Source of the DNA: a virus
Lineage: Duplodnaviria; Heunggongvirae; Uroviricota; Caudoviricetes
Virus record (IMG/VR): IMGVR_UViG_2541047774_000004
Length of the DNA stretch: 11,147 nucleotides
Reading direction: 5' to 3' (one strand)
Made by a program: the position numbers and the translations under genes. The first letter of the stretch is position 1. The number at the start of each line of letters is the position of its first letter. Shown here piece by piece: positions 1-11,147 of the stretch. Below the pieces are notes generated by a model that did not search any database, was not told where the DNA came from, and was given only the letters and a program-made list of their open reading frames with translations.

Positions 1-996
1 GCACAGGAGAAATCCCTGCTGGCGCATAAAGATGAGACGCTGGAGTACAAACGCCAGCTGGCTGCACTTGGCGACAAGGTTACGTATCAGGAGCGCCTGA
101 ACGCGCTGGCGCAGCAGGCGGATAAGTTCGCACAGCAACAACGGGCAAAACGGGCAGCCATTGAGGCGAAAAACCGGGGGCTTACTGACCGGCAGGCAGC
201 GCGGGAAGCCACAGAACAGCGCCTGAAGGAACAGTATGGCGATAATTCGCTGGCGCTGAATAACGTCATGTCAGAGCAGAAAAAGACCTGGGCGGCTGAA
301 GACCAGCTTCGCGGGAGCTGGATGGCAGGCCTCAGGTCCGGCTGGAGTGAGTGGGAAGAGAGCGCCACGGACAGTATGTCGCAGGTTAAAAGTGCAGCCA
401 CGCAGACCTTTGATGGTATTGCGCAGAATATGGCGGCGATGCTGACCGGCAGTGAGCAGAACTGGCGCAGCTTCACCCGTTCCGTGCTGTCCATGATGAC
501 AGAAATTCTGCTTAAGCAGGCAATGGTGGGGATTGTCGGGAGTATCGGTAGCGCCATTGGCGGGGCTGTTGGTGGCGGCGCATCCGCGTCAGGCGGTACA
601 GCCATTCAGGCCGCTGCGGCGAAATTCCATTTTGCAACCGGAGGATTTACGGGAACCGGCGGCAAATATGAGCCAGCGGGGATTGTTCACCGTGGTGAAT
701 TTGTCTTCACGAAGGAGGCAACCAGCCGGATTGGTGTCGGCAACCTGTACCGCCTGATGCGGGGCTATGCGGAAGGTGGTTATGTGGGCGGTGCCGGAAG
801 TCCGGCGCAGATGCGGCGGGCTGAAGGCATTAATTTTAATCAGAACAATCACGTGGTGATTCAGAACGACGGTACGAATGGTCTGCCAGGTCCACAGATG
901 ATGAAGGCAGTGTATGACATGGCCCGCAAGGGTGCCCGTGATGAAATTCAGACACAGATGCGTGATGGTGGCCTGTTCTCCGGAGGTGGACGATGA
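1..996 (+). CDS. H: Tail tape measure protein, C-terminal portion (5'-partial; ORF open from base 1 in frame 1)
   Basis: Frame 1 is open from position 1 to TGA at 994-996; the ORF-track Met at 268 is internal. Gly-rich C-terminus (GSIGSAIGGAVGGGASASGGT...GLFSGGGR) and position immediately upstream of M with ATGA overlap match lambda gpH. Identity is by recalled similarity and synteny. Confidence 0.88.
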   Translation, partial: AQEKSLLAHKDETLEYKRQLAALGDKVTYQERLNALAQQADKFAQQQRAKRAAIEAKNRGLTDRQAAREATEQRLKEQYGDNSLALNNVMSEQKKTWAAEDQLRGSWMAGLRSGWSEWEESATDSMSQVKSAATQTFDGIAQNMAAMLTGSEQNWRSFTRSVLSMMTEILLKQAMVGIVGSIGSAIGGAVGGGASASGGTAIQAAAAKFHFATGGFTGTGGKYEPAGIVHRGEFVFTKEATSRIGVGNLYRLMRGYAEGGYVGGAGSPAQMRRAEGINFNQNNHVVIQNDGTNGLPGPQMMKAVYDMARKGARDEIQTQMRDGGLFSGGGR

Positions 997-1322
997 AAAC
1001 CTTCCGCTGGAAAGTGAAACCCGGTATGGATGTGGCTTCGGCCCCTTCCGTCAGGAAAGTGCGCTTTGGTGATGGCTATTCCCAGCGAGCGCCTGCCGGG
1101 CTGAATGCCGACCTGAAAACGTACAGCGTGACGCTTTCTGTTCCCCGTTGGGAGGCCACGGCGCTGGAGTCGTTTCTGGCTGAGCACGGGGGCTGGAAAG
1201 CCTTTCTGTGGACGCCGCCTTATGAGTGGCGGCAGATAAAGGTGACCTGCGCAAAATGGTCGTCGCGGGTCAGTATGCTGCGTGTTGAGTTCAGCGCAGA
1301 GTTTGAACAGGTGGTGAACTGA
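993..1322 (+). CDS. M: Minor tail protein M (tail tip assembly), 109 aa
   Basis: 109-aa ORF MKTFRWKVKPGMDVASAP..., same length as lambda gpM; ATG at 993 overlaps H stop (ATGA); stop overlaps L start (TGATG), indicating translational coupling. Confidence 0.93.
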   Translation: MKTFRWKVKPGMDVASAPSVRKVRFGDGYSQRAPAGLNADLKTYSVTLSVPRWEATALESFLAEHGGWKAFLWTPPYEWRQIKVTCAKWSSRVSMLRVEFSAEFEQVVN

Positions 1323-2020
1323 TGCAGGATATCCGGCAGGAAACACTGAATGAATGCACCCGTGCGGAGCAGTCGGCCAGCGTGGTGCTCTGGGAAATCG
1401 ACCTGACAGAGGTCGGTGGAGAACGTTATTTTTTCTGTAATGAGCTGAACGAAAAAGGTGAGCCGGTCACCTGGCAGGGGCGACAGTATCAGCCGTATCC
1501 CATTCAGGGGAGCGGTTTTGAACTGAATGGCAAAGGCACCAGTACGCGCCCCACGCTGACGGTTTCTAACCTGTACGGTATGGTCACCGGGATGGCGGAA
1601 GATCTGCAGAGTCTGGTCGGCGGAACGGTGGTCAGGCGTAAGGTTTACGCCCGTTTTCTGGATGCGGTGAACTTCGTCAACGGAAACAGTTACGCCGATC
1701 CGGAGCAGGAGGTGATCAGCCGCTGGCGCATTGAGCAGTGCAGCGAACTGAGCGCGGTGAGTGCCTCCTTTGTACTGTCCACGCCGACGGAAACGGATGG
1801 CGCTGTTTTTCCGGGACGTATCATGCTGGCCAACACCTGCACCTGGACCTATCGCGGTGACGAGTGCGGTTATAGCGGTCCGGCTGTCGCGGATGAATAT
1901 GACCAGCCGACGTCCGATATCACGAAGGATAAATGCAGCAAATGCCTGAGTGGCTGTAAGTTCCGCAATAACGTCGGCAACTTTGGCGGCTTCCTTTCCA
2001 TTAACAAACTTTCGCAGTAA
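1322..2020 (+). CDS. L: Minor tail protein L (tail tip complex), 232 aa
   Basis: 232-aa ORF MQDIRQETLNECTRAEQSASVVLWEIDLTEVGGERYFFCNEL..., same length and N-terminus as lambda gpL; C-terminal cysteine cluster CTWTYRGDECGYSG...DKCSKCLSGC. Confidence 0.93.
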   Translation: MQDIRQETLNECTRAEQSASVVLWEIDLTEVGGERYFFCNELNEKGEPVTWQGRQYQPYPIQGSGFELNGKGTSTRPTLTVSNLYGMVTGMAEDLQSLVGGTVVRRKVYARFLDAVNFVNGNSYADPEQEVISRWRIEQCSELSAVSASFVLSTPTETDGAVFPGRIMLANTCTWTYRGDECGYSGPAVADEYDQPTSDITKDKCSKCLSGCKFRNNVGNFGGFLSINKLSQ

Positions 2021-2024
2021 TCCC

Positions 2025-2768
2025 ATGACAGAGACAGAATCAGCGATTCTGGCGCACGCCCGGCGATGTGCGCCAGCGGAGTCGTGCGGCTTCGTGGTGA
2101 GAACGCCGGAGGGGGAAAGATATTTTCCCTGCGTGAATATTTCCGGTGAGCCGGAGGATTATTTCCGGATGGCTCCGGAGGACTGGCTGCAGGCAGAAAT
2201 GCAGGGTGAGATTGTGGCGCTGGTCCACAGCCACCCCGGTGGTCTGCCCTGGCTGAGTGAGGCTGACCGGCGGCTGCAGGTGCAGAGTGATTTGCCGTGG
2301 TTGCTGGTCTGCCGGGGGGCGATTCATAAGTTCCGCTGTGTGCCGCATCTCACCGGGCGGCGCTTTGAGCACGGGGTGACGGACTGTTACACGCTGTTCC
2401 GGGATGCTTATCATCTGGCGGGGATTGAGATGCCGGATTTTCATCGCGGGGATGACTGGTGGCGTCACGGTCAGAATCTCTATCTGGATAATCTGGAGGC
2501 CACAGGGCTGTATCAGGTGCCGTTGTCATCAGCACAACCGGGCGATGTGCTGCTGTGCTGTTTTGGTTCATCGGTGCCGAATCATGCCGCCATTTACTGT
2601 GGTGACGGCGAGCTGCTGCACCATATTCCTGAACAACTGAGCAAACGAGAGAGGTATACCGACAAATGGCAGCGACGCACACACTCCCTCTGGCGTCACC
2701 GGGCATGGCGCGCATCTGCCTTTACGGGGATTTACAACGATTTGGCCGCCGCATCGACCTTCGTGTGA
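2025..2768 (+). CDS. K: Tail tip assembly protein K (JAMM/MPN-like plus NlpC/P60-like domains), 247 aa from ATG 2025; alternative start ATG 2169 gives 199 aa
   Basis: ORF in frame 3; first ATG after the L stop is at 2025 (MTETESAILAHARRC...). Contains HSHPGGLPWLSEAD (H-x-H-x7-S-x2-D JAMM-type motif) and later GVTDCYTLF ... NHAAIY (Cys/His as in NlpC/P60 peptidases). The 1950 start in the ORF track overlaps L by 71 nt and is unlikely. ATG 2169 has the better Shine-Dalgarno (GGAGG at 2153-2157). Confidence 0.82.
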   Translation: MTETESAILAHARRCAPAESCGFVVRTPEGERYFPCVNISGEPEDYFRMAPEDWLQAEMQGEIVALVHSHPGGLPWLSEADRRLQVQSDLPWLLVCRGAIHKFRCVPHLTGRRFEHGVTDCYTLFRDAYHLAGIEMPDFHRGDDWWRHGQNLYLDNLEATGLYQVPLSSAQPGDVLLCCFGSSVPNHAAIYCGDGELLHHIPEQLSKRERYTDKWQRRTHSLWRHRAWRASAFTGIYNDLAAASTFV

Positions 2769-3337
2769 AAACGGGGGCTGAAGCCATTCGGGCGCTGGCC
2801 ACACAGCTCCCGGCGTTTCGTCAGAAACTGAGCGACGGCTGGTATCAGGTACGGATTTCCGGGCGGGACGTCAGCACGTCCGGATTGACGGCGCAGTTAC
2901 ATGAGGTTCTGCCTGACGGCGCTGTGATTCATATTGTTCCCAGAGTCGCCGGGGCCAAGTCAGGGGGCGTATTCCAGATTGTTCTGGGGGCTGCCGCCAT
3001 TGCCGGATCATTCTTTACTGCCGGAGCCACCCTTGCAGCATGGGGGGCAGCCATTGGGGCCGGTGGTATGACCGGTATCCTGTTTTCTCTCGGTGCCAGT
3101 ATGGTACTTGGTGGTGTGGCGCAGATGCTGGCACCGAAAGCCAGAACTCCCCGTACACAGACAACGGATAACGGTAAGCAGAACACCTATTTCTCCTCAC
3201 TGGATAACATGGTTGCCCAGGGCAATGTTCTGCCTGTTCTGTACGGTGAAATGCGCGTGGGGTCGCGGGTGGCTTCTCAGGAGATCAGCACGGCAGACGA
3301 GGGGGACGGTGGTCAGGTTGTGGTGATTGGTCGTTGA
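2666..3337 (+). CDS. I: Tail tip assembly protein I, 223 aa
   Basis: 223-aa ORF MAATHTLPLASPGMARICLYGDLQRFGRRIDL..., same length as lambda gpI; starts inside the 3' end of K in another frame (103-nt overlap) as in lambda; Gly/Ala-rich hydrophobic C-terminal half; purine-rich GAGAGAGG upstream. Confidence 0.9.
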   Translation: MAATHTLPLASPGMARICLYGDLQRFGRRIDLRVKTGAEAIRALATQLPAFRQKLSDGWYQVRISGRDVSTSGLTAQLHEVLPDGAVIHIVPRVAGAKSGGVFQIVLGAAAIAGSFFTAGATLAAWGAAIGAGGMTGILFSLGASMVLGGVAQMLAPKARTPRTQTTDNGKQNTYFSSLDNMVAQGNVLPVLYGEMRVGSRVASQEISTADEGDGGQVVVIGR

Positions 3338-3355
3338 TGAAAAACGTTTTATGTG

Positions 3356-3382
3356 AAACCGCCTCAGGGCGGTTTTGTCGTT
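3356..3382 (+). terminator. Stem-loop with T-rich tail in the I-J intergenic gap (possible weak terminator/attenuator or RNA processing site)
   Basis: AAACCGCC (3356-3363), loop TCAG, GGCGGTTT (3368-3375): perfect 8-bp inverted repeat followed by TGTCGTTTC. Confidence 0.35.
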
Positions 3383-3397
3383 TCTGGAGCGTGAGGA

Positions 3398-6300
3398 ATG
3401 GGTAAAGGCAGCAGTAAGGGGCATACCCCGCGCGAAGCGAAGGACAACCTGAAATCATCCCAGATGCTGAGCGTGATAGACGCCATCAGTGAAGGGCCGA
3501 TTGAAGGTCCGGTGGACGGATTAAAAAGTGTGCTGCTGAACAGTACGCCAGTGCTGGACAGTGAGGGGAATACCAATATCTCCGGTGTCACGGTGGTTTT
3601 CCGGGCAGGTGAGCAGGAGCAGACACCGCCGGAGGGATTTGAATCCTCCGGCTCCGAGACGGTGCTGGGTACGGAAGTGAAGTACGACACGCCGATTACC
3701 CGGACCATCACGTCTGCAAACATCGACCGTCTGCGCTTTACCTTCGGTGTGCAGGCACTGGTGGAAACCACCTCAAAGGGGGACCGGAATCCGTCGGAAG
3801 TCCGCCTGCTGGTTCAGATACAGCGTAACGGTGGCTGGGTGACGGAAAAAGACATCACCATTAAAGGCAAAACCACCTCGCAGTATCTGGCATCGGTGGT
3901 GGTGGGTAACCTGCCGCCGCGCCCGTTCAATATCCGGATGCGCAGGATGACGCCGGACAGCACCACAGACCAGCTGCAGAACAAAACGCTCTGGTCGTCA
4001 TACACCGAAATCATCGATGTGAAACAGTGCTACCCGAACACGGCACTGGTCGGCGTACAGGTGGATTCGGAGCAGTTCGGCAGCCAGCAGGTGAGCCGTA
4101 ATTATCATCTGCGCGGGCGTATTCTGCAGGTGCCGTCGAACTATAACCCGCAGACGCGGCAATACAGCGGTATCTGGGACGGAACGTTTAAGCCAGCATA
4201 CAGCAATAACATGGCCTGGTGTCTGTGGGATATGCTGACCCATCCACGCTACGGCATGGGGAAACGTCTTGGTGCGGCGGATGTGGACAAATGGGCGCTG
4301 TATGTCATCGGCCAGTACTGCGACCAGTCAGTGCCGGACGGCTTTGGCAGCACGGAGCCGCGCATCACCTGTAATGCCTGGCTGACCACACAGCGAAAGG
4401 CGTGGGATGTGCTCAGTGATTTCTGCTCGGCGATGCGCTGTATGCCGGTATGGAACGGGCAGACGCTGACGTTCGTGCAGGACCGACCGTCGGATAAGGT
4501 GTGGACCTATAACCGCAGTAATGTGGTGATGCCGGATGATGGCGCGCCGTTCCGCTACAGCTTCAGCGCCCTGAAAGACCGCCATAATGCCGTTGAGGTG
4601 AACTGGATTGACCCGAACAACGGCTGGGAGACGGCGACAGAGCTTGTGGAGGATACGCAGGCCATTGCCCGTTACGGTCGTAACGTCACGAAGATGGATG
4701 CCTTTGGCTGTACCAGCCGGGGGCAGGCACACCGCGCCGGGCTGTGGCTGATTAAAACGGAACTGCTGGAGACGCAGACCGTGGATTTCAGCGTGGGCGC
4801 AGAAGGGCTTCGCCATGTGCCGGGCGATGTTATTGAAATCTGCGATGATGACTATGCGGGGATCAGCATCGGCGGGCGCGTGCTGGCTGTGAACAGCCAG
4901 ACCCGGACGCTGACGCTCGACCGTGAAATCACGCTGCCATCCTCCGGTACCACGCTGATAAGCCTGGTTGACGGAAGTGGCAATCCGGTCAGCGTGGAGG
5001 TCCAGTCCGTCACCGACGGCGTGAAGGTAAAAGTGAGCCGTGTTCCTGACGGCGTTGCCGGATACAGCGTATGGGGGCTGAAGCTGCCGACGCTGCGCCA
5101 GCGCCTGTTCCGCTGCGTGAGTATCCGTGAGAACGATGACGGCACGTATGCCATCACCGCCGTGCAGCATGTACCAGAAAAAGAGGCCATCGTGGATAAC
5201 GGGGCGCACTTTGACGGCGACCAGAGCGGCACGGTGAATGGTGTCACGCCGCCAGCAGTGCAGCACCTGACTGCCGAAGTCACCGCAGACAGCGGGGAAT
5301 ATCAGGTGCTGGCGCGCTGGGACACGCCGAAGGTGGTGAAGGGGGTGAGCTTTATGCTTCGCCTGACCGTGGCAGCGGATGACGGCAGTGAGCGGCTGGT
5401 CAGCACGGCCCGGACGGCGGAAACCACATACCGCTTCACGCAACTGGCGCTGGGGAACTACAGGCTGACAGTCCGGGCAGTAAATGCCCGGGGGCAGCAG
5501 GGAGACCCGGCGTCGGTATCGTTCCGGATTGCCGCCCCGGCAGCGCCGTCGCGGATTGAGCTGACACCGGGCTATTTTCAGATAACCGCCACGCCGCATC
5601 TTGCGGTTTATGACCCGACGGTACAGTTTGAGTTCTGGTTCTCGGAAAAACGGATTGCTGATATCAGGCAGGTTGAAACCACAGCCCGCTATCTTGGCAC
5701 GGCGCTGTACTGGATAGCTGCCAGTATCAATATCAAACCGGGCCATGATTATTACTTTTATATCCGCAGTGTGAACACCGTTGGCAAATCGGCATTCGTG
5801 GAGGCCGTCGGTCGGGCGAGCGATGATGCGGAAGGTTACCTGGATTTTTTCAAAGGCCAGATAACCGAATCCCATCTCGGTAAAGAGCTGCTGGAAAAAG
5901 TTGATTTGACGGAGGATAACGCCAGCAGACTGGATGAGTTTTCGAAAGAGTGGAAGGACGCTAACGATAAATGGAATGCCATGTGGGGCGTCAAAATTGA
6001 GCAGACCAAAGACGGCAAACATTATGTCGCGGGTATTGGCCTCAGCATGGAGGACACGGAGGAAGGCAAGCTGAGCCAGTTTCTGGTTGCCGCTAACCGT
6101 ATCGCGTTTATTGACCCGGCAAACGGGAATGAAACGCCGATGTTTGTGGCGCAGGGCAACCAGATATTCATGAACGACGTGTTCCTGAAACGCCTGACGG
6201 CCCCCACCATTACCAGCGGTGGCAGTCCTCCGGTATTTTCCCTGACATCAGACGGAAAGCTGACCGCTAAAAATGCGGATATCAGTGGTAGTGTGAATGC

Positions 6301-6811
6301 GAACTCAGGAACGCTCAACAATGTCACGATTAACCAGAACTGTACGATTAAGGGCATGCTGGAGGCGACTCAGGTCAGAGGTGACTTCGTTAAAGCTGTA
6401 TCCAAATCATTTCCGAAACAGGCTGGTACGTGGGGTAACACGGAAACACCAAACGGGACGGTTACAGTCACCATCAGCGATGATCATAACTTTGACCGTC
6501 AAATCATTATTCCGCCCATTATCTTTAACGGAATAGCGTATAGCGATCCGGGAAGTGGTAATAACCCGGGAGGTACAAGATACACGGGTTATGGTTTTGA
6601 AGTTCGCAAAAACGGTGTATTAATCGCATCCAGAGAAACTAAAGGGGCCATTCCCGGTAGCTACAGTGCGGTTATTGATATGCCGAGTGGCAGGGGAAGC
6701 GTCACTCTGGAGTTTAAGGTTTTCCATAAAGGCAATCAGTGGGCAGGTAATATCACCGACTGTACGGTGATTGTGACCAAAAAAGCCGCTTCCGGCATCA
6801 GTATTCGTTGA
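3398..6811 (+). CDS. J: Central tail fibre / host specificity protein J, 1137 aa
   Basis: 1137-aa [57 protein letters not shown]..., recalled as near-identical to lambda gpJ (1132 aa) over most of its length; GAGG immediately upstream of the ATG; follows I after a 60-nt gap. Confidence 0.95.
6320..6808 (+). other. Divergent, lower-GC C-terminal (receptor-binding) segment of J
   Basis: Base composition drops sharply (one 60-nt line at 6481-6540 counts 22 G+C, versus 39 G+C for 5401-5460). The protein departs from the recalled lambda gpJ C-terminus after about ...[15 protein letters not shown], while keeping the ...VIVTKKA.SGIS.. ending pattern. Confidence 0.5.
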
Positions 6812-6832
6812 AATTGTTATAACCCATATAAG

Positions 6833-6856
6833 GGCACCAGAAATGGTGCCTTTTTT
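6833..6856 (+). terminator. Rho-independent terminator-like hairpin between J and lom
   Basis: GGCACCA (6833-6839), loop GAAA, TGGTGCC (6844-6850) followed by TTTTTT (6851-6856); 22 nt after the J stop. Confidence 0.6.
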
Positions 6857-6880
6857 ATTGCAGAAAAGCGAGAGGTAATT

Positions 6881-7480
6881 ATGCGTAAATTATGTGCTGT
6901 TATTCTGTCTGCAGTAGTCTGGCTGGTCGCCGCTGGTACGCCAGCGAGTGCAGCAGAGCATCAGTCCACACTAAGCGGCGGGTATCTTCAGTCCCATACT
7001 GATATGCCCGGCAACGATGACCTGAAGGGCATTAACGTGAAATACCGTTATGAGTTTACGGACACGCTGGGGATGGTGACGTCATTCAGCTATGCAGAAG
7101 ACAAGAATCGCCAGCTGACTCATTACAGCGATACCCGCTGGCATGAAGATTCCGTGCGTAACCGCTGGTTCAGCGTGATGGCGGGGCCGTCTGTGCGCGT
7201 GAATGAATGGTTCAGCGCGTATGCGATGGCGGGTGTGGCTTACAGCCGTATTTCGACTTTCTCCGGGGATTATCTCCGCGTAACTGACAACAAGGGGAAA
7301 ACGCACGACGTGCTGACCGGAAGTGATGACGGTCGCCGCAGCAACACGTCTCTGGCGTGGGGGGCTGGCGTGCAGTTTAACCCGACCGAATCCGTGGCCA
7401 TTGATATTGCTTATGAAGGCTCCGGCAGTGGCGACTGGCGCACTGACGGTTTCATCGTGGGTGTCGGTTATAAATTCTGA
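6881..7480 (+). CDS. lom: Lom outer membrane protein (Ail/Lom/PagC-family beta-barrel), 199 aa; lysogenic-conversion moron
   Basis: 199-aa ORF with N-terminal signal peptide MRKLCAVILSAVVWLVAAGTPASA followed by AEHQ (A-x-A cleavage site), alternating aromatic/hydrophobic beta-strand pattern and C-terminal ...GVGYKF; GAGAGG 6 nt upstream of ATG; same position as lambda lom between J and stf. Confidence 0.9.
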   Translation: MRKLCAVILSAVVWLVAAGTPASAAEHQSTLSGGYLQSHTDMPGNDDLKGINVKYRYEFTDTLGMVTSFSYAEDKNRQLTHYSDTRWHEDSVRNRWFSVMAGPSVRVNEWFSAYAMAGVAYSRISTFSGDYLRVTDNKGKTHDVLTGSDDGRRSNTSLAWGAGVQFNPTESVAIDIAYEGSGSGDWRTDGFIVGVGYKF

Positions 7481-7506
7481 TTAGCCAGGTAACACAGTGT
7501 TATGAC

Positions 7507-7533
7507 AGCCCGCCGGTTCAGGCGGGCTTTTTT
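7507..7533 (+). terminator. Rho-independent terminator downstream of lom
   Basis: AGCCCGCC (7507-7514), loop GGTTCA, GGCGGGCT (7521-7528) followed by a T-run through 7533; 27 nt after the lom stop. Confidence 0.65.
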
Positions 7534-7544
7534 GTGGGGTGAAT

Positions 7545-10500
7545 ATGGCAGTAAAGATTTCAGGTGTACTGAAAGACGGTGCAGGTAAACCGGTACAGAA
7601 CTGCACAATCCAGCTGAAAGCAAAACGTAACAGCACCACGGTGGTGGTGAACACGGTGGCATCTGAAAATCCGGATGAAGCCGGGCGTTACAGCATGGAC
7701 GTTGAGTACGGTCAGTACCGCGTTATTCTGTTGGTGGAAGGATTCCCGCCGTCACATGCCGGGACCATCACCGTGTATGAAGATTCTCAACCCGGTACGC
7801 TGAATGATTTTCTCGGTGCCATGACGGAGGATGATGCCCGTCCGGAGGCACTGCGCCGTTTTGAACTGATGGTGGAAGAGGTGGCGCGTAACGCGTCCGC
7901 AGTGGCACAGAACACGGCAGCCGCAAAGAAGTCAGCCAGCGATGCCGGCACATCTGCCCGTGAGGCGGCAACCCATGCAACCGATGCTGCAGGCTCAGCA
8001 CGTGCCGCCAGCACGTCAGCCGGACAGGCTGCATCATCTGCTCAGTCAGCATCTTCCAGCGCAGGAACGGCATCAACAAAGGCCACTGAAGCATTAAAAA
8101 GTGCTGCCGCTGCAGAGTCCTCAAAAAGCGCGGCAGCCACCAGTGCCGGTGCGGCGAAAACGTCAGAAACGAATGCCGCAGCATCACAACTATCAGCAGC
8201 CACTTCTGCATCCACCGCGACCACGAAGGCGTCAGAAGCTGCCACCTCAGCCCGGGATGCGGCGGCCTCAAAAGAGGCAGCGAAATCATCAGAAACGAAC
8301 GCATCATCAAGTGCCAGTAGTGCAGCTTCCTCGGCAACGGCGGCAGGAAATTCCGCGAAGGCCGCAAAAACGTCTGAGACGAATGCGGATAACAGCGCAC
8401 AGGCGGCAGCAGACTCACAAACTGCATCGGCAAACTCCGCGACAGCAGCCAAAAAATCAGAAACCAACGCGAAAAATAGCGAGGCAGCAGCAAAGAGCAG
8501 CGAAACAAACGCTAAAGCCAGCGAAACTAATGCTAAATCCAGTGAAACAAACGCGGCGAAATCTGCGGCGGACGCACTTAATTATTGCAACCAGGCGCAA
8601 GTAATTGTTGGCGATAATATCGGTCTTGGCTCAGCCCCGCGTGATTGTCCTGATATTTCCGGCAACCCATCAGGGTATATCGGATTTATGCGCATTATGA
8701 GTAATGCAAAAGGCTTTCCATCGATTGCATCCGGTGAAAGCAGTCTTACGGGGTTTATTAGTCAGGTAGATGGAACACCAGCGTATACAGGTGTATTTCA
8801 GGGATGGGCTACGCGCTCGCTTTATACTTATCGCTGGAATCCGACAACAGGCCCGCAATGGACACGCCACGCTCGCAAAAATGAAGTGGACCGTCTTGAC
8901 CAATGGAATAGCGAAACATGGTTATATAACCATGATAAATCCATGCGCCTGGGTTTAACCGGATCAACATGGGGGTGTTACAGCGACACACAAAAAAAAT
9001 GGATACCGCTTGATGTTTCTCATGGTGGCACTGGCGCAAATAGCCTTGATGACGCCAAAACTAATTTGCAAATCCCTGAGGGTGGATTAACAAAAGCGAT
9101 GACCCTTAATGCCCCTGGTGGTGCAGTGGATGGCAAATACTACCCTGTCATAATAGACACATCTGCAATGAATGGGAGCGGTGCCATGTTATGTCCTGTT
9201 GAAATAAAAACAGCAGGAGGTCCGGCATCAAATCCGCTTAATAGTAACTCATTTTTTGGGTTCATTCGATGTGGTGGCTGGAGTGACGTTCGCGATGTGG
9301 CTTACGGGTCATTTGTTTGCTATGAAAAAAATGAACTCGGGATACTTTGCATTAAAGCGTCGCAAAGAGATTATGCGCAGCATGTAGCTTTCTACATCCA
9401 TAAAAGCGCTTTTCCTGTCGTTGTGCAAACTGGCTACAAGGCGAAAGTTAAGGTTCCAACAGAAGACTACGTAATTGGTGACAACGGGGTTAGATATAAG
9501 TTTGGTGTATCAACGTCAACGGAGGATAACGACAAGAACTTTGTTAAAAATGTTCTTGACTTCACTGGCGGTGAACATGGCTTCTACAGCAACCTTCCGT
9601 TCAGACAAGGGGTGTCAGAAAGGATTGCATTAACAAATGGCCTGAGTTTTGACAAAAATTTTACCGTCACTATTCCTATATTTGTAAACAATGGTCAGAT
9701 TAAAGCAACACAATCTTTCACCGCGTACGGTACAGACGCTTCAAACAGAACATTTGTTTCTCAAAGATTACAATCCGAAGGAGGTCCGGTTGTCGATCAA
9801 ACTGAACTAAGGGCCGCTAACGCTTCTGGTGAAATTATTGTCAGGGACATAAATAATTCAGGGAACAGTAAGTTCTTTAATTTTAACCTTGATGGTACCT
9901 TCAGTTCTTACCAGGGATTGGTTGTTCACACAGGGCAAAACTGGAGCACTCAACATACAGATAATGTAAATAAGTTTAAGCCAATAGCAGGGAGCGCAGG
10001 CGGTCCTGACGGAACAATGGTTGTTGGCGGATTCCATGCTCAATTTAGCGGTAATTACGTCACACAATTCGCCGGTCGCAACTCCAAATTTTGGGCAAGA
10101 AGCTTTGAGGCTGGGGTTGATAAGGGATGGAAACGACTATTAACAGTAGACGATCTCAATTCATCTACCGATCTTGCTGTCAGGTCATTAACCACATCTA
10201 ACCCGGTAAAATCTGGCGGAGGGCGAATTGATGTCCTTGGAAGCACGTCAGACTATAGCAAAATGGATTGCTTTGTACGTGGGTTTGATAGCACCGGTAA
10301 TTCTCTCGCGTGGGCGTTGGGTTCATCAGTCGGCGTAAGTAAGATGCTGTCGCTAAAAAATTTCTTTAGCGGAGCTGAGATACTGTTAAATGGTAATGAC
10401 GGCGCGGTTCAACTCAAAACAGGTGCTGTTAACGGGGCTAAAGCGCAGGCGCTCACTATCAACAAGGATGAGGTTAATTCAACTGTTGATTTAACTCTTA

Positions 10501-11147
10501 CAAAACAAACAGGGACTGGCAATCGTTTTGTTTTACAGAACTTAGGTAATACAGAACTATCATTTGCCGCAAAAGTATGGGGATCAAGTGATCGACAAAA
10601 CGTTTTTGAGGTTGGAACGTCTGCTGCGTATCTGTTTTATGCGCAAAAAACGTCAGCAGGCCAGTTGTTTGATGTAAATGGCGCTATTAATTGCACAACG
10701 CTGAATCAGTCATCAGACCGCGACCTTAAAGACGATATTCTCGTTATCAGCGACGCGACGAAAGCAATCCGTAAAATGAACGGATACACCTACACGCTCA
10801 GGGAAAACGGGATGCCTTATGCTGGCGTTATTGCACAGGAAGTAATGGAGGCGATACCAGAAGCTGTGGGATCGTTTACTCATTACGGTGAAGAGTTGCA
10901 GGGACCAACGGTTGACGGCAATGAATTACGTGAAGAAACACGTTATCTGAATGTTGACTACGCCGCCGTGACGGGGTTACTTGTTCAGGTCGCCCGTGAA
11001 ACAGATGGTCGCGTTACCGCGCTGGAAGAGGAAAACATAACGCTACGTAAAAATCTGGCAACAGCAGGCACCCGGATCAGCACTCTGGAAAATCAGGTAA
11101 GCGAACTGGTTGCACTTGTCGGGCAGTTAACAGGAAGCGAACATTGA
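7545..11147 (+). CDS. stf: Side tail fibre protein (Stf-like): lambda-Stf-like N-terminus, Ala/Ser-rich repetitive shaft, divergent distal region, C-terminal intramolecular chaperone domain; about 1200 aa
   Basis: Continuous ORF to TGA at 11145-11147. N-terminus MAVKISGVLKDGAGKPVQNCTIQLKAKRNSTTVVVNTV...GQYRVILLVEGFPPSHAGTITVYEDSQPGTLNDFL matches the recalled lambda Stf N-terminus, followed by SETNA-containing Ala/Ser-rich repeats. The ORF track starts at GTG 7539 (MNM...); ATG 7545 (MAVKISG) is preferred by analogy to lambda Stf. Confidence 0.9.
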   Translation: MAVKISGVLKDGAGKPVQNCTIQLKAKRNSTTVVVNTVASENPDEAGRYSMDVEYGQYRVILLVEGFPPSHAGTITVYEDSQPGTLNDFLGAMTEDDARPEALRRFELMVEEVARNASAVAQNTAAAKKSASDAGTSAREAATHATDAAGSARAASTSAGQAASSAQSASSSAGTASTKATEALKSAAAAESSKSAAATSAGAAKTSETNAAASQLSAATSASTATTKASEAATSARDAAASKEAAKSSETNASSSASSAASSATAAGNSAKAAKTSETNADNSAQAAADSQTASANSATAAKKSETNAKNSEAAAKSSETNAKASETNAKSSETNAAKSAADALNYCNQAQVIVGDNIGLGSAPRDCPDISGNPSGYIGFMRIMSNAKGFPSIASGESSLTGFISQVDGTPAYTGVFQGWATRSLYTYRWNPTTGPQWTRHARKNEVDRLDQWNSETWLYNHDKSMRLGLTGSTWGCYSDTQKKWIPLDVSHGGTGANSLDDAKTNLQIPEGGLTKAMTLNAPGGAVDGKYYPVIIDTSAMNGSGAMLCPVEIKTAGGPASNPLNSNSFFGFIRCGGWSDVRDVAYGSFVCYEKNELGILCIKASQRDYAQHVAFYIHKSAFPVVVQTGYKAKVKVPTEDYVIGDNGVRYKFGVSTSTEDNDKNFVKNVLDFTGGEHGFYSNLPFRQGVSERIALTNGLSFDKNFTVTIPIFVNNGQIKATQSFTAYGTDASNRTFVSQRLQSEGGPVVDQTELRAANASGEIIVRDINNSGNSKFFNFNLDGTFSSYQGLVVHTGQNWSTQHTDNVNKFKPIAGSAGGPDGTMVVGGFHAQFSGNYVTQFAGRNSKFWARSFEAGVDKGWKRLLTVDDLNSSTDLAVRSLTTSNPVKSGGGRIDVLGSTSDYSKMDCFVRGFDSTGNSLAWALGSSVGVSKMLSLKNFFSGAEILLNGNDGAVQLKTGAVNGAKAQALTINKDEVNSTVDLTLTKQTGTGNRFVLQNLGNTELSFAAKVWGSSDRQNVFEVGTSAAYLFYAQKTSAGQLFDVNGAINCTTLNQSSDRDLKDDILVISDATKAIRKMNGYTYTLRENGMPYAGVIAQEVMEAIPEAVGSFTHYGEELQGPTVDGNELREETRYLNVDYAAVTGLLVQVARETDGRVTALEEENITLRKNLATAGTRISTLENQVSELVALVGQLTGSEH
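8150..8565 (+). repeat. In-frame degenerate peptide repeats (K-[ST]-SETNA...) in the Stf shaft, ending in three tandem 21-nt units
   Basis: Protein motifs AKTSETNAAASQ, AKSSETNASSSA, AKTSETNADNSA, KKSETNAKNSE, then tandem SETNAKA-SETNAKS-SETNAAK encoded at about 8497-8565 (agcgaaacaaacgctaaagcc / agcgaaactaatgctaaatcc / agtgaaacaaacgcggcgaaa). Confidence 0.6.
10713..11144 (+). other. C-terminal intramolecular chaperone / autoproteolytic domain of Stf (peptidase S74-like, as in endosialidase and T5 L-shaped fibre)
   Basis: Motif NQSSDRDLKDDILVISDATKAIRKMNGYTYTL with Ser (codon 10713-10715) and Lys (codon 10728-10730) spaced S-x4-K, followed by a heptad-like C-terminal helix ...TALEEENITLRKNLATAGTRISTLENQVSELVALVGQL at the protein end. 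Confidence 0.6.

Follow-up and report, generated by a model that had tools for sequence, protein, structure and literature searches.

A lambda-type side tail fibre joined to a distal module shared with the lateral fibres of T5-like phages and Queuovirinae

Stf, the side tail fibre encoded at the end of an 11,147-nucleotide Caudoviricetes sequence (IMG/VR record IMGVR_UViG_2541047774_000004; the whole stretch analysed is hereafter the window), is on sequence comparison a composite in which a lambda-type anchor and shaft lead into a lateral-fibre module of the T5-like and Queuovirinae kind, followed by an intramolecular chaperone. The module (in-frame positions 8571–10712, Stf residues 343–1056, 714 residues) looks like an ordinary non-enzymatic fibre of small beta-rich domains and is probably the outer segment with which a mosaic, trimeric side fibre recognises its host by binding a surface glycan. 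The initial annotation had placed a module of about 700 residues, possibly a beta-helical receptor-binding or glycan-degrading domain, between the shaft and the S74 chaperone. Its size and location were right, with PF08400 at the N-terminus and Peptidase_S74 from residue 1057; its coordinates, 8570–10712, captured the region but were off by one base in frame. The protein is already in public databases under a generic annotation and is near-identical to the Stf of phage mEp460.

Organization of stf and the mosaic junction

The window covers the tail-tip end of a lambda-like Escherichia coli prophage, with minor tail genes followed by gpJ (3398–6811), lom (6881–7480) and stf, which runs to the window end. 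A single unbroken open reading frame spans 7539–11147, and translation likely starts at the ATG at 7545, giving 1200 residues (7545–11147). The J–lom–stf order and the PF08400 anchor identify a lambda-type side tail fibre. The gene is organized as follows.

7545–7946, plus strand: virion-attachment domain, Stf residues 1–134, PF08400 'prophage tail fibre N-terminal' (Pfam E = 1.3e-71)
7947–8570, plus strand: Ala/Ser/Thr-rich shaft, residues 135–342 (A 36%, S 23%)
8613–9080, plus strand: D1, residues ~357–512, the most conserved sub-domain
9093–9593, plus strand: D2, residues ~517–683, beta-rich and knob-like, the most widely distributed sub-domain
9678–10151, plus strand: D3, residues ~712–869, a beta-meander ending in a conserved ...FAGRNSKFWARSFEAGVDKGW motif
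10158–10712, plus strand: D4, residues ~872–1056, the distal tip adjoining the chaperone
10713–11144, plus strand: S74 intramolecular chaperone, residues 1057–1200, PF13884, with a C-terminal coiled coil
10713–10715 (Ser1057) and 10728–10730 (Lys1062), plus strand: predicted self-cleavage dyad, from alignment with T5 pb1

Over residues 1–94, Stf is nearly identical to a lambda tail fibre chain of solved structure (9e7m_Ta, E = 4.6e-51). The blastn match to lambda stf (87% over gene nucleotides 1–842) ends at residue 284, window position 8386, with 86% protein identity over residues 1–284, and only this first part of Stf is lambda-type by sequence. The description of the shaft as lambda-like therefore stands up to residue 284 and fails beyond it; the 'SETNA' repeats of residues ~243–324 are common to the T5 fibre. 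These heptad-type, Ala/Ser/Thr-rich 'SETNA(K)' repeats occupy 8271–8516, in a region (8271–8554) that encodes residues ~243–337. T5 ltf matches at 81% over gene nucleotides 727–972 (blastn), and T5 pb1 residues 45–205 are 57% identical to the Stf shaft (BLASTP). Both arrays detected by Tandem Repeats Finder, at 7968–7987 and 8498–8554 (21-bp), also lie in the shaft. From window position 8618 (residue ~358) onwards, the nucleotide sequence matches the fibre genes of phages FritzHoffmann and slur09; with the lateral tail fibre gene of FritzHoffmann, identity is 83% over gene nucleotides 1074–3490 (window 8618–11034, to residue ~1163). Because the SETNA stretch is common to lambda stf, T5 ltf and these lateral fibres and sits between the two parts of the gene, it is likely a linker for homologous recombination; such a linker looks able to let fibres move among lambdoid, T5-like and Queuovirinae phages.

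Composition, family and origin of the module

The module is low in G+C (44.3% over 8571–10712, against 56.6% in window positions 1–7544 and 56.1% in the N-terminus and shaft). As the initial annotation had stated, it is free of low-complexity repeats: Tandem Repeats Finder detected no array within it, self-BLAST found no internal repeat, and its composition is ordinary (G 11%, S 9%, compared with A 36% and S 23% in the shaft). The end of lambda homology at residue 284, the onset of lateral-fibre homology at residue ~358 and the low G+C bear out the proposal that the module is the horizontally acquired distal part of a side tail fibre.

Pfam found only PF08400 and Peptidase_S74 in Stf and nothing in residues 343–1056, and NCBIfam returned no match for the protein. 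PHROG 6578, 'tail fiber protein', covers residues 471–1187 (E = 0 with the whole of Stf as query and 3.3e-303 with only the module); this profile match and the colinear homology across D1–D4 and the chaperone place Stf among the lateral fibres of that family. Among phage records, the side tail fibre of mEp460 matches best, with 99.2% identity across the module, followed by the lateral tail fibre of FritzHoffmann (Nonagvirus, Bas20, QXV79286; 79–83% amino acid and 83% nucleotide identity) and the L-shaped fibre of slur09 (Tequintavirus, CUR48954; 69–70% and 74%). The fibres of BB1, VAH1 and SLUR76 are colinear with the module at ~43% identity, and those of many T5-like E. coli and Salmonella phages at 37–46% over 98% of its length. 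The members of this family are the lateral fibres that serve T5-like and Queuovirinae phages in host recognition, which supports the receptor-recognition role first proposed for the module. Among 5426 complete E. coli genomes, part of the module occurs in 812 and at least 80% in 100, and it is at least 99% identical in 61; identical copies lie in chromosomes such as those of CE0026f and APEC O78, and the cluster of near-identical proteins has 1361 member sequences.

The G+C of the module (44%) is like that of Queuovirinae (42–44%) and nearer to that of T5-like phages (38–39%) than to that of the neighbouring tail genes (57%), which suggests import from virulent siphoviruses. Downstream of stf, the matching genomes carry only an N-terminally truncated tfa pseudogene and then the invertase gene pinR, an arrangement that fits the swap of a Tfa-dependent tip for a self-chaperoning one. 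With lambda homology stopping at residue 284 and tfa truncated, Stf shows no Tfa-dependent C-terminal receptor domain of the lambda or T4 gp37 type. The downstream regions lie outside the window (APEC O78, NC_020163, L001 10560–14751; CE0026f, L008 12626–13439). The APEC O78 prophage is degraded, with lom truncated and J and other tail genes absent, and retains an intact 1200-codon stf open reading frame.

Four independently exchanged domains

The module was divided according to the pattern of partial hits in an exhaustive search of 1.84 billion representatives, which returned 202 clusters at E ≤ 1e-3. D1 is 66–73% identical across 57 homologues and ends in a fibre joint motif, W-x-P-L...GGTGA...A..NL, that matches the phage SU10 fibre (7z47_D) and DT57C LtfA when the 57 sequences are used as a profile. 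The slur09 fibre has three copies of this D1 end with its joint (residues ~300–600), and BB1-type fibres carry an insertion of ~250 residues at the same place; fibre length in the family seems to be tuned by duplication of the joint unit. D2 is delimited by many representative hits confined to positions 175–341 of the module, and it occurs by itself in many other fibres, adjoining Gp34_trimer, Phage_fiber_2 and Collar domains. Residues 541–720 form a distinct allele block, falling to 50–80% identity among prophage alleles that are otherwise 96–100% identical. In phage 9g, fibre gp70 is colinear only from the N-terminus to residue 682, within D2, and then continues into a Tfa-type tip.

D3 is marked by separate hits to positions 370–527 of the module. 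HildyBeyeler and many relatives share residues 357–868 and then have a different distal end, and D2 and D3 occur together, at ~31% identity, in the lateral fibres of rV5-like myoviruses. D4 is variable or replaced across the family, with alignment occupancy falling after ~870 and high entropy over 870–1040; among many E. coli prophage alleles it is 96–100% identical. Its last ~65 residues are homologous to a shaft segment of T4 gp34 (profile against 4uxe_A, E = 5e-6). The partial hits, the tip switches and the 541–720 allele swap indicate that each domain is an independent unit of exchange.

D3–D4 with the S74 chaperone were also found in fusion with other domains in a set of predicted proteins (P0238, P0249, P0253, P0258 and P0277). 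In P0238 they follow a gpJ-like N-terminus (FNIII-A_GpJ and Phage_Tail_Tip), which could reflect real use of the same tip in a central fibre; fusions to terminase ATPase or TAGT domains in several others look like assembly or gene-calling chimeras.

Predicted fold and absence of enzyme signatures

AlphaFold2 models were built as monomers, for residues 343–1200 from the 57-sequence alignment and for D2–D3 alone. The longer model has a mean predicted local distance difference test (pLDDT) score of 68 (D1–D2 80–90, with D1 at 82–90; D3 ~70; D4 40–68), and the D2–D3 model reaches 80.6 (D2 85–95, D3 61–88). An intertwined trimer would be expected to model badly as a monomer, which may account for the poor D4 prediction. 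The predicted fold is all-beta, composed of short antiparallel four-strand meanders, with a long C-terminal helix (Stf residues 1140–1196, model residues 798–854). The closest structural matches are fibre knob domains, as listed below (match score, distance in Å, residues).

R2 pyocin fibre 6cl6: 8.2, 3.9 Å, 93
R2 pyocin fibre 6cu2: 7.4, 2.6 Å, 77
Phage K gp144 C-terminal domains (5m9f): 7.6, 2.7 Å, 77
phi812 baseplate receptor-binding proteins: 7.8, 3.5–9.1 Å, 88–123
Mu, T4 gp34, Pa193 and T7 fibres: 5.0–6.6, 5.4–11.0 Å, 87–149
Tailspike depolymerases 24qi, 6eu4, 6tgf and 3riq: 5.2–7.8, 5–15 Å, 126–175
Tailspike depolymerases 6c72 and 8oq0: 4.7–5.3, 2.9–3.9 Å, 99–107

Tailspike depolymerases match poorly, and the models gave no strong superposition on a solved tailspike. 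A parallel beta-helix of ~360 residues would have matched tailspikes far more strongly, and the module, as modelled, is thus a beaded fibre of knob-type domains and not a beta-helical spike. No solved structure matches any of its domains well, and T5 pb1 is absent from the structural matches. The initial annotation had named, as the outcome that would speak against an enzyme, a non-beta-helical fold akin to a characterised protein-binding fibre tip: the predicted fold is indeed non-beta-helical, but the relatives are uncharacterised fibres, with no characterised protein-binding tip among them.

Sequence searches gave a similar picture. Within the module, Pfam, NCBIfam and PHROG returned no enzyme, beta-helix or pectate-lyase-like family. 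A single-sequence search of the PDB with the module alone found no match to a solved structure (best E = 0.39), and the 57-sequence profile run against all PDB sequences found no tailspike or endosialidase in residues 343–1056, its only matches there being the GGTGA joint and the T4 gp34-like end of D4. In the chaperone region, the same profile matched DT57C LtfA, MYRF and S16 gp37. Matches to a 'depolymerase' (profile positions 12–135) and to SGNH esterases were rejected, since they fall in the coiled shaft. For the endosialidases (GH58), no End_* Pfam match was found, and the Foldseek alignment to phi92 endosialidase (4hiz) had a probability of 0.21 and a template modelling (TM) score of 0.06.

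Chaperone and maturation

PF13884 (Peptidase_S74) matches residues 1057–1108 with E = 1e-12 and 48.6 bits, against a cut-off of 22. S1057-DRDL-K1062 aligns with S1264-DARL-K1269 of T5 pb1, so that the Ser...Lys dyad is present in Stf. In pb1, S1264 and K1269 form the autoproteolytic dyad, and cleavage requires correct folding of the trimer (PMC4690869). By analogy, three Stf chains would trimerise, the C-terminal chaperone (1057–1200) would template the folding of the adjoining D4, and autoproteolysis through Ser1057/Lys1062 would then release the chaperone, leaving a mature fibre of residues 1–1056. As the chaperone would both fold the tip and free itself, no Tfa assembly protein should be needed. 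The mature fibre would then attach, reversibly and with no cleavage, to a variable polysaccharide of the cell surface, O-antigen being the most probable target; this binding would concentrate and orient the virion, thereby giving gpJ access to its outer-membrane protein receptor.

Receptor recognition and alternative interpretations

Binding of a surface glycan by a non-enzymatic fibre is the interpretation that we favour as probable, with the glycan receptor taken from analogy. T5 pb1 binds the O8/O9 mannan reversibly (PMC4690869), DT57C LtfA and LtfB recognise O22, O87 and O81 (PMC4728585), and the BASEL authors assigned O-antigen recognition to the lateral fibres of Markadamsvirinae and proposed it for Nonagvirus (PMC8594841). 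In a review model, fibres of this kind hold on reversibly and keep the virion oriented during the search of the central fibre for its porin (PMC10743462). Within one host species the module family has many alleles, 35–60% identical and with swapped domains, as would fit a glycan receptor that is hypervariable. The T4 gp34 homology at the D4 end and the D2 homologues in long-fibre proteins of myoviruses likewise point to a non-enzymatic fibre.

Several observations weigh against glycan binding or against this reading as a whole. No member of the module family has a mapped receptor, and the O-antigen binders T5 pb1 and DT57C LtfA share with Stf only the shaft repeats, the GGTGA joint (LtfA) and the S74 region. 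The hosts on which mEp460, FritzHoffmann and slur09 were propagated are rough and of the K-12 type; growth there implies that the fibre is dispensable on such cells and is uninformative about its ligand. Several invariant residues of D2–D3 (D581, E597, H831, R845 and R852) have no assigned role, and the structure models are monomers of a presumably trimeric protein, with D4 poorly predicted (pLDDT 40–68). Among lambda-like side fibres, the Stf of Ur-lambda binds OmpC (PMC11338833) and that of Gifsy-1 binds the lipopolysaccharide (LPS) core at Gal II (PMC12312913). Given these two counter-examples, we would put O-antigen as the target at roughly even odds, by analogy with the T5-like fibres.

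Some possible guides to the receptor were set aside. The mEp460 literature found consists of prophage-typing mentions, with no receptor or structure work. O-serogroups of lysogens were rejected as an indicator, as the identical copies include several O78 poultry strains and may reflect clonal inheritance. According to a review, phage 9g (Nonagvirus) needs its lateral fibre on smooth hosts; this was not taken as receptor evidence for D3–D4, because gp70 resembles Stf only as far as D2, beyond which it has a tip of the Tfa type.

Among the alternatives, a trimeric parallel beta-helix tailspike (an endosialidase, lyase or O-antigen hydrolase) degrading capsule or O-antigen to reach the cell surface, as the initial annotation had surmised, is very improbable. 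In its favour, endosialidases and K5 lyase do carry S74 chaperones (PMC4690869), Foldseek lists phi92 endosialidase and beta-propeller proteins with low probability, and D2–D3 contain the invariant acidic and basic residues. The chaperone, however, is not diagnostic of an enzyme, because T5 pb1 carries one and is a non-enzymatic mannan-binding fibre. The family and profile searches described above retrieved no enzyme, beta-helix or PDB tailspike in residues 343–1056, the models predict antiparallel meanders in four separable domains in place of one long solenoid, and the closest homologues belong to the thin lateral fibres that T5-like phages carry. A less remote but still unlikely reading retains the non-enzymatic fibre and changes the ligand to a conserved outer-membrane protein or the LPS core. 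It agrees with the use of OmpC and LPS core by lambda-like side fibres, with the strong conservation of D1 and D3 across E. coli and Salmonella phages and of D4 among E. coli prophage alleles, and with the growth on rough K-12 of phages with close alleles. Yet in related virulent phages the lateral fibre is dispensable on rough K-12, and their terminal receptors map to other proteins (PMC8594841); moreover, allele diversity and domain replacement are typical of fibres tracking variable glycans, and the module has no similarity to an OmpC-binding tip of the lambda/T4 gp37 type.

Two further interpretations concern which domains make contact. That D1–D3 are spacer beads setting fibre length and flexibility, with only the short distal D4 recognising the receptor, appears doubtful. 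D1–D2 are common to fibres with different tips (the Tfa-type tip of 9g gp70; HildyBeyeler), D2 homologues adjoin Gp34_trimer in proximal or shaft parts of myovirus long fibres, and in DT57C LtfA O-antigen specificity is set by the region that immediately precedes the cleavage site (PMC4728585). Against this, it is D2 (541–720), not D4, that is exchanged among near-identical prophage alleles, and some lateral fibres are predicted by the BASEL authors to have two receptor-binding domains (PMC11990801). Host-range mutations of a T5-like Salmonella phage also fall in the middle of its Ltf, at residues 468–556 (PMC12541327), in a protein that may or may not be homologous to Stf; the phi37 Ltf mutations of that paper were accordingly set aside as a guide, no accession or sequence having been found. 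Somewhat less doubtful, though still unlikely, is an adhesin with several sites, in which the D2–D3 knob pair and D4 would each bind a different glycan and each be exchanged independently among lambdoid, T5-like, Queuovirinae and rV5-like phages. Such a fibre would correspond, in linear form, to the 'T-shaped' fibres with two domains that are predicted for the BASEL collection (PMC11990801). It is compatible with the swapping of D2 among otherwise identical prophage alleles and of D4 among distant relatives, with the travel of D2–D3 as a unit into myovirus fibres and with the lack of a well-matching solved structure. In an extreme version, the invariant Asp/Glu/His/Arg cluster of D2–D3 could be a cryptic glycan-modifying site.

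Neighbouring features of the window

A terminator-like hairpin with a T-run lies at 7507–7534, directly 5' of the stf start (AGCCCGCC...GGCGGGCT TTTTTG), and a second one at 6830–6853 in the gap between J and lom. As these precede the stf start, stf expression may need read-through or antitermination. In the C-terminal third of gpJ (5600–6811), G+C drops from ~0.60–0.66 to 0.47–0.52 over the last ~1.2 kb of the gene, a sign that in the central tail fibre, too, the receptor-binding end may have been imported as part of a mosaic. Alternative-frame open reading frames of 246, 141 and 167 residues overlap the shaft-coding region (7768–8604) on the minus and plus strands; most likely they arise from the repeats and skewed composition of that region and are not genes.

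Relation to known fibres and implications

The mEp460 Stf (JQ182728/NC_019716) and the RefSeq 'prophage tail fiber N-terminal domain and S74 family endopeptidase-containing protein' are essentially the same protein as the one described here. The FritzHoffmann and slur09 fibres are colinear with it over D1–D4 and the chaperone (aligned residues 318–1173 and 439–1181). They belong to virulent phages, whereas this Stf belongs to a prophage, and they differ at the virion-attachment end, which is T5-type in slur09 and a diverged PF08400 (35%) in FritzHoffmann. Both carry a different allele of D2 (541–720), and the slur09 fibre has the extra D1-joint copies.

T5 pb1 resembles Stf in its N-terminal anchor, its SETNA coiled shaft (57%), its beta-structured distal domains and its S74 region with an aligned dyad, and its reversible, non-enzymatic O-antigen binding is the paradigm for how Stf may work. 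D4 is nevertheless not a detectable relative of the pb1 'bullet' domain, since hhalign of D4 and the chaperone against pb1 900–1396 aligned only the cleavage site. As the bullet has no detectable sequence similarity to D1–D4, the mannan specificity of pb1 is not transferable to Stf. LtfA and LtfB of DT57C and DT571/2 are likewise lateral fibres ending in S74; their GGTGA joint and chaperone align with Stf, and homology is limited to these two parts. The DT57C system is branched and consists of two proteins, whereas a single fibre gene is present here. With R2 pyocin (6cl6/6cu2), phage K gp144 (5m9f) and T4 gp34 (4uxe/5nxh), similarity extends over ~77–93 residues at 9–17% identity, a resemblance of building blocks that does not extend to the module as a whole. 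The K1F and phi92 endosialidases and K5 lyase have a C-terminal S74 domain like Stf, but their catalytic beta-propeller or beta-helix is absent from it.

That mosaic tail fibres with S74 chaperones track surface glycans is well established; the find is unsurprising and its practical value modest. The module family, a common one, passes between temperate and virulent phages. Were its ligand mapped, the module would add a naturally occurring cassette, self-folding and independent of Tfa, with which lambda-based delivery particles could be retargeted; the junction that nature has made in the SETNA repeats marks a place where such a fusion is tolerated. A mapped ligand would also allow better host-range prediction for T5-like and Nonagvirus therapeutic phages.

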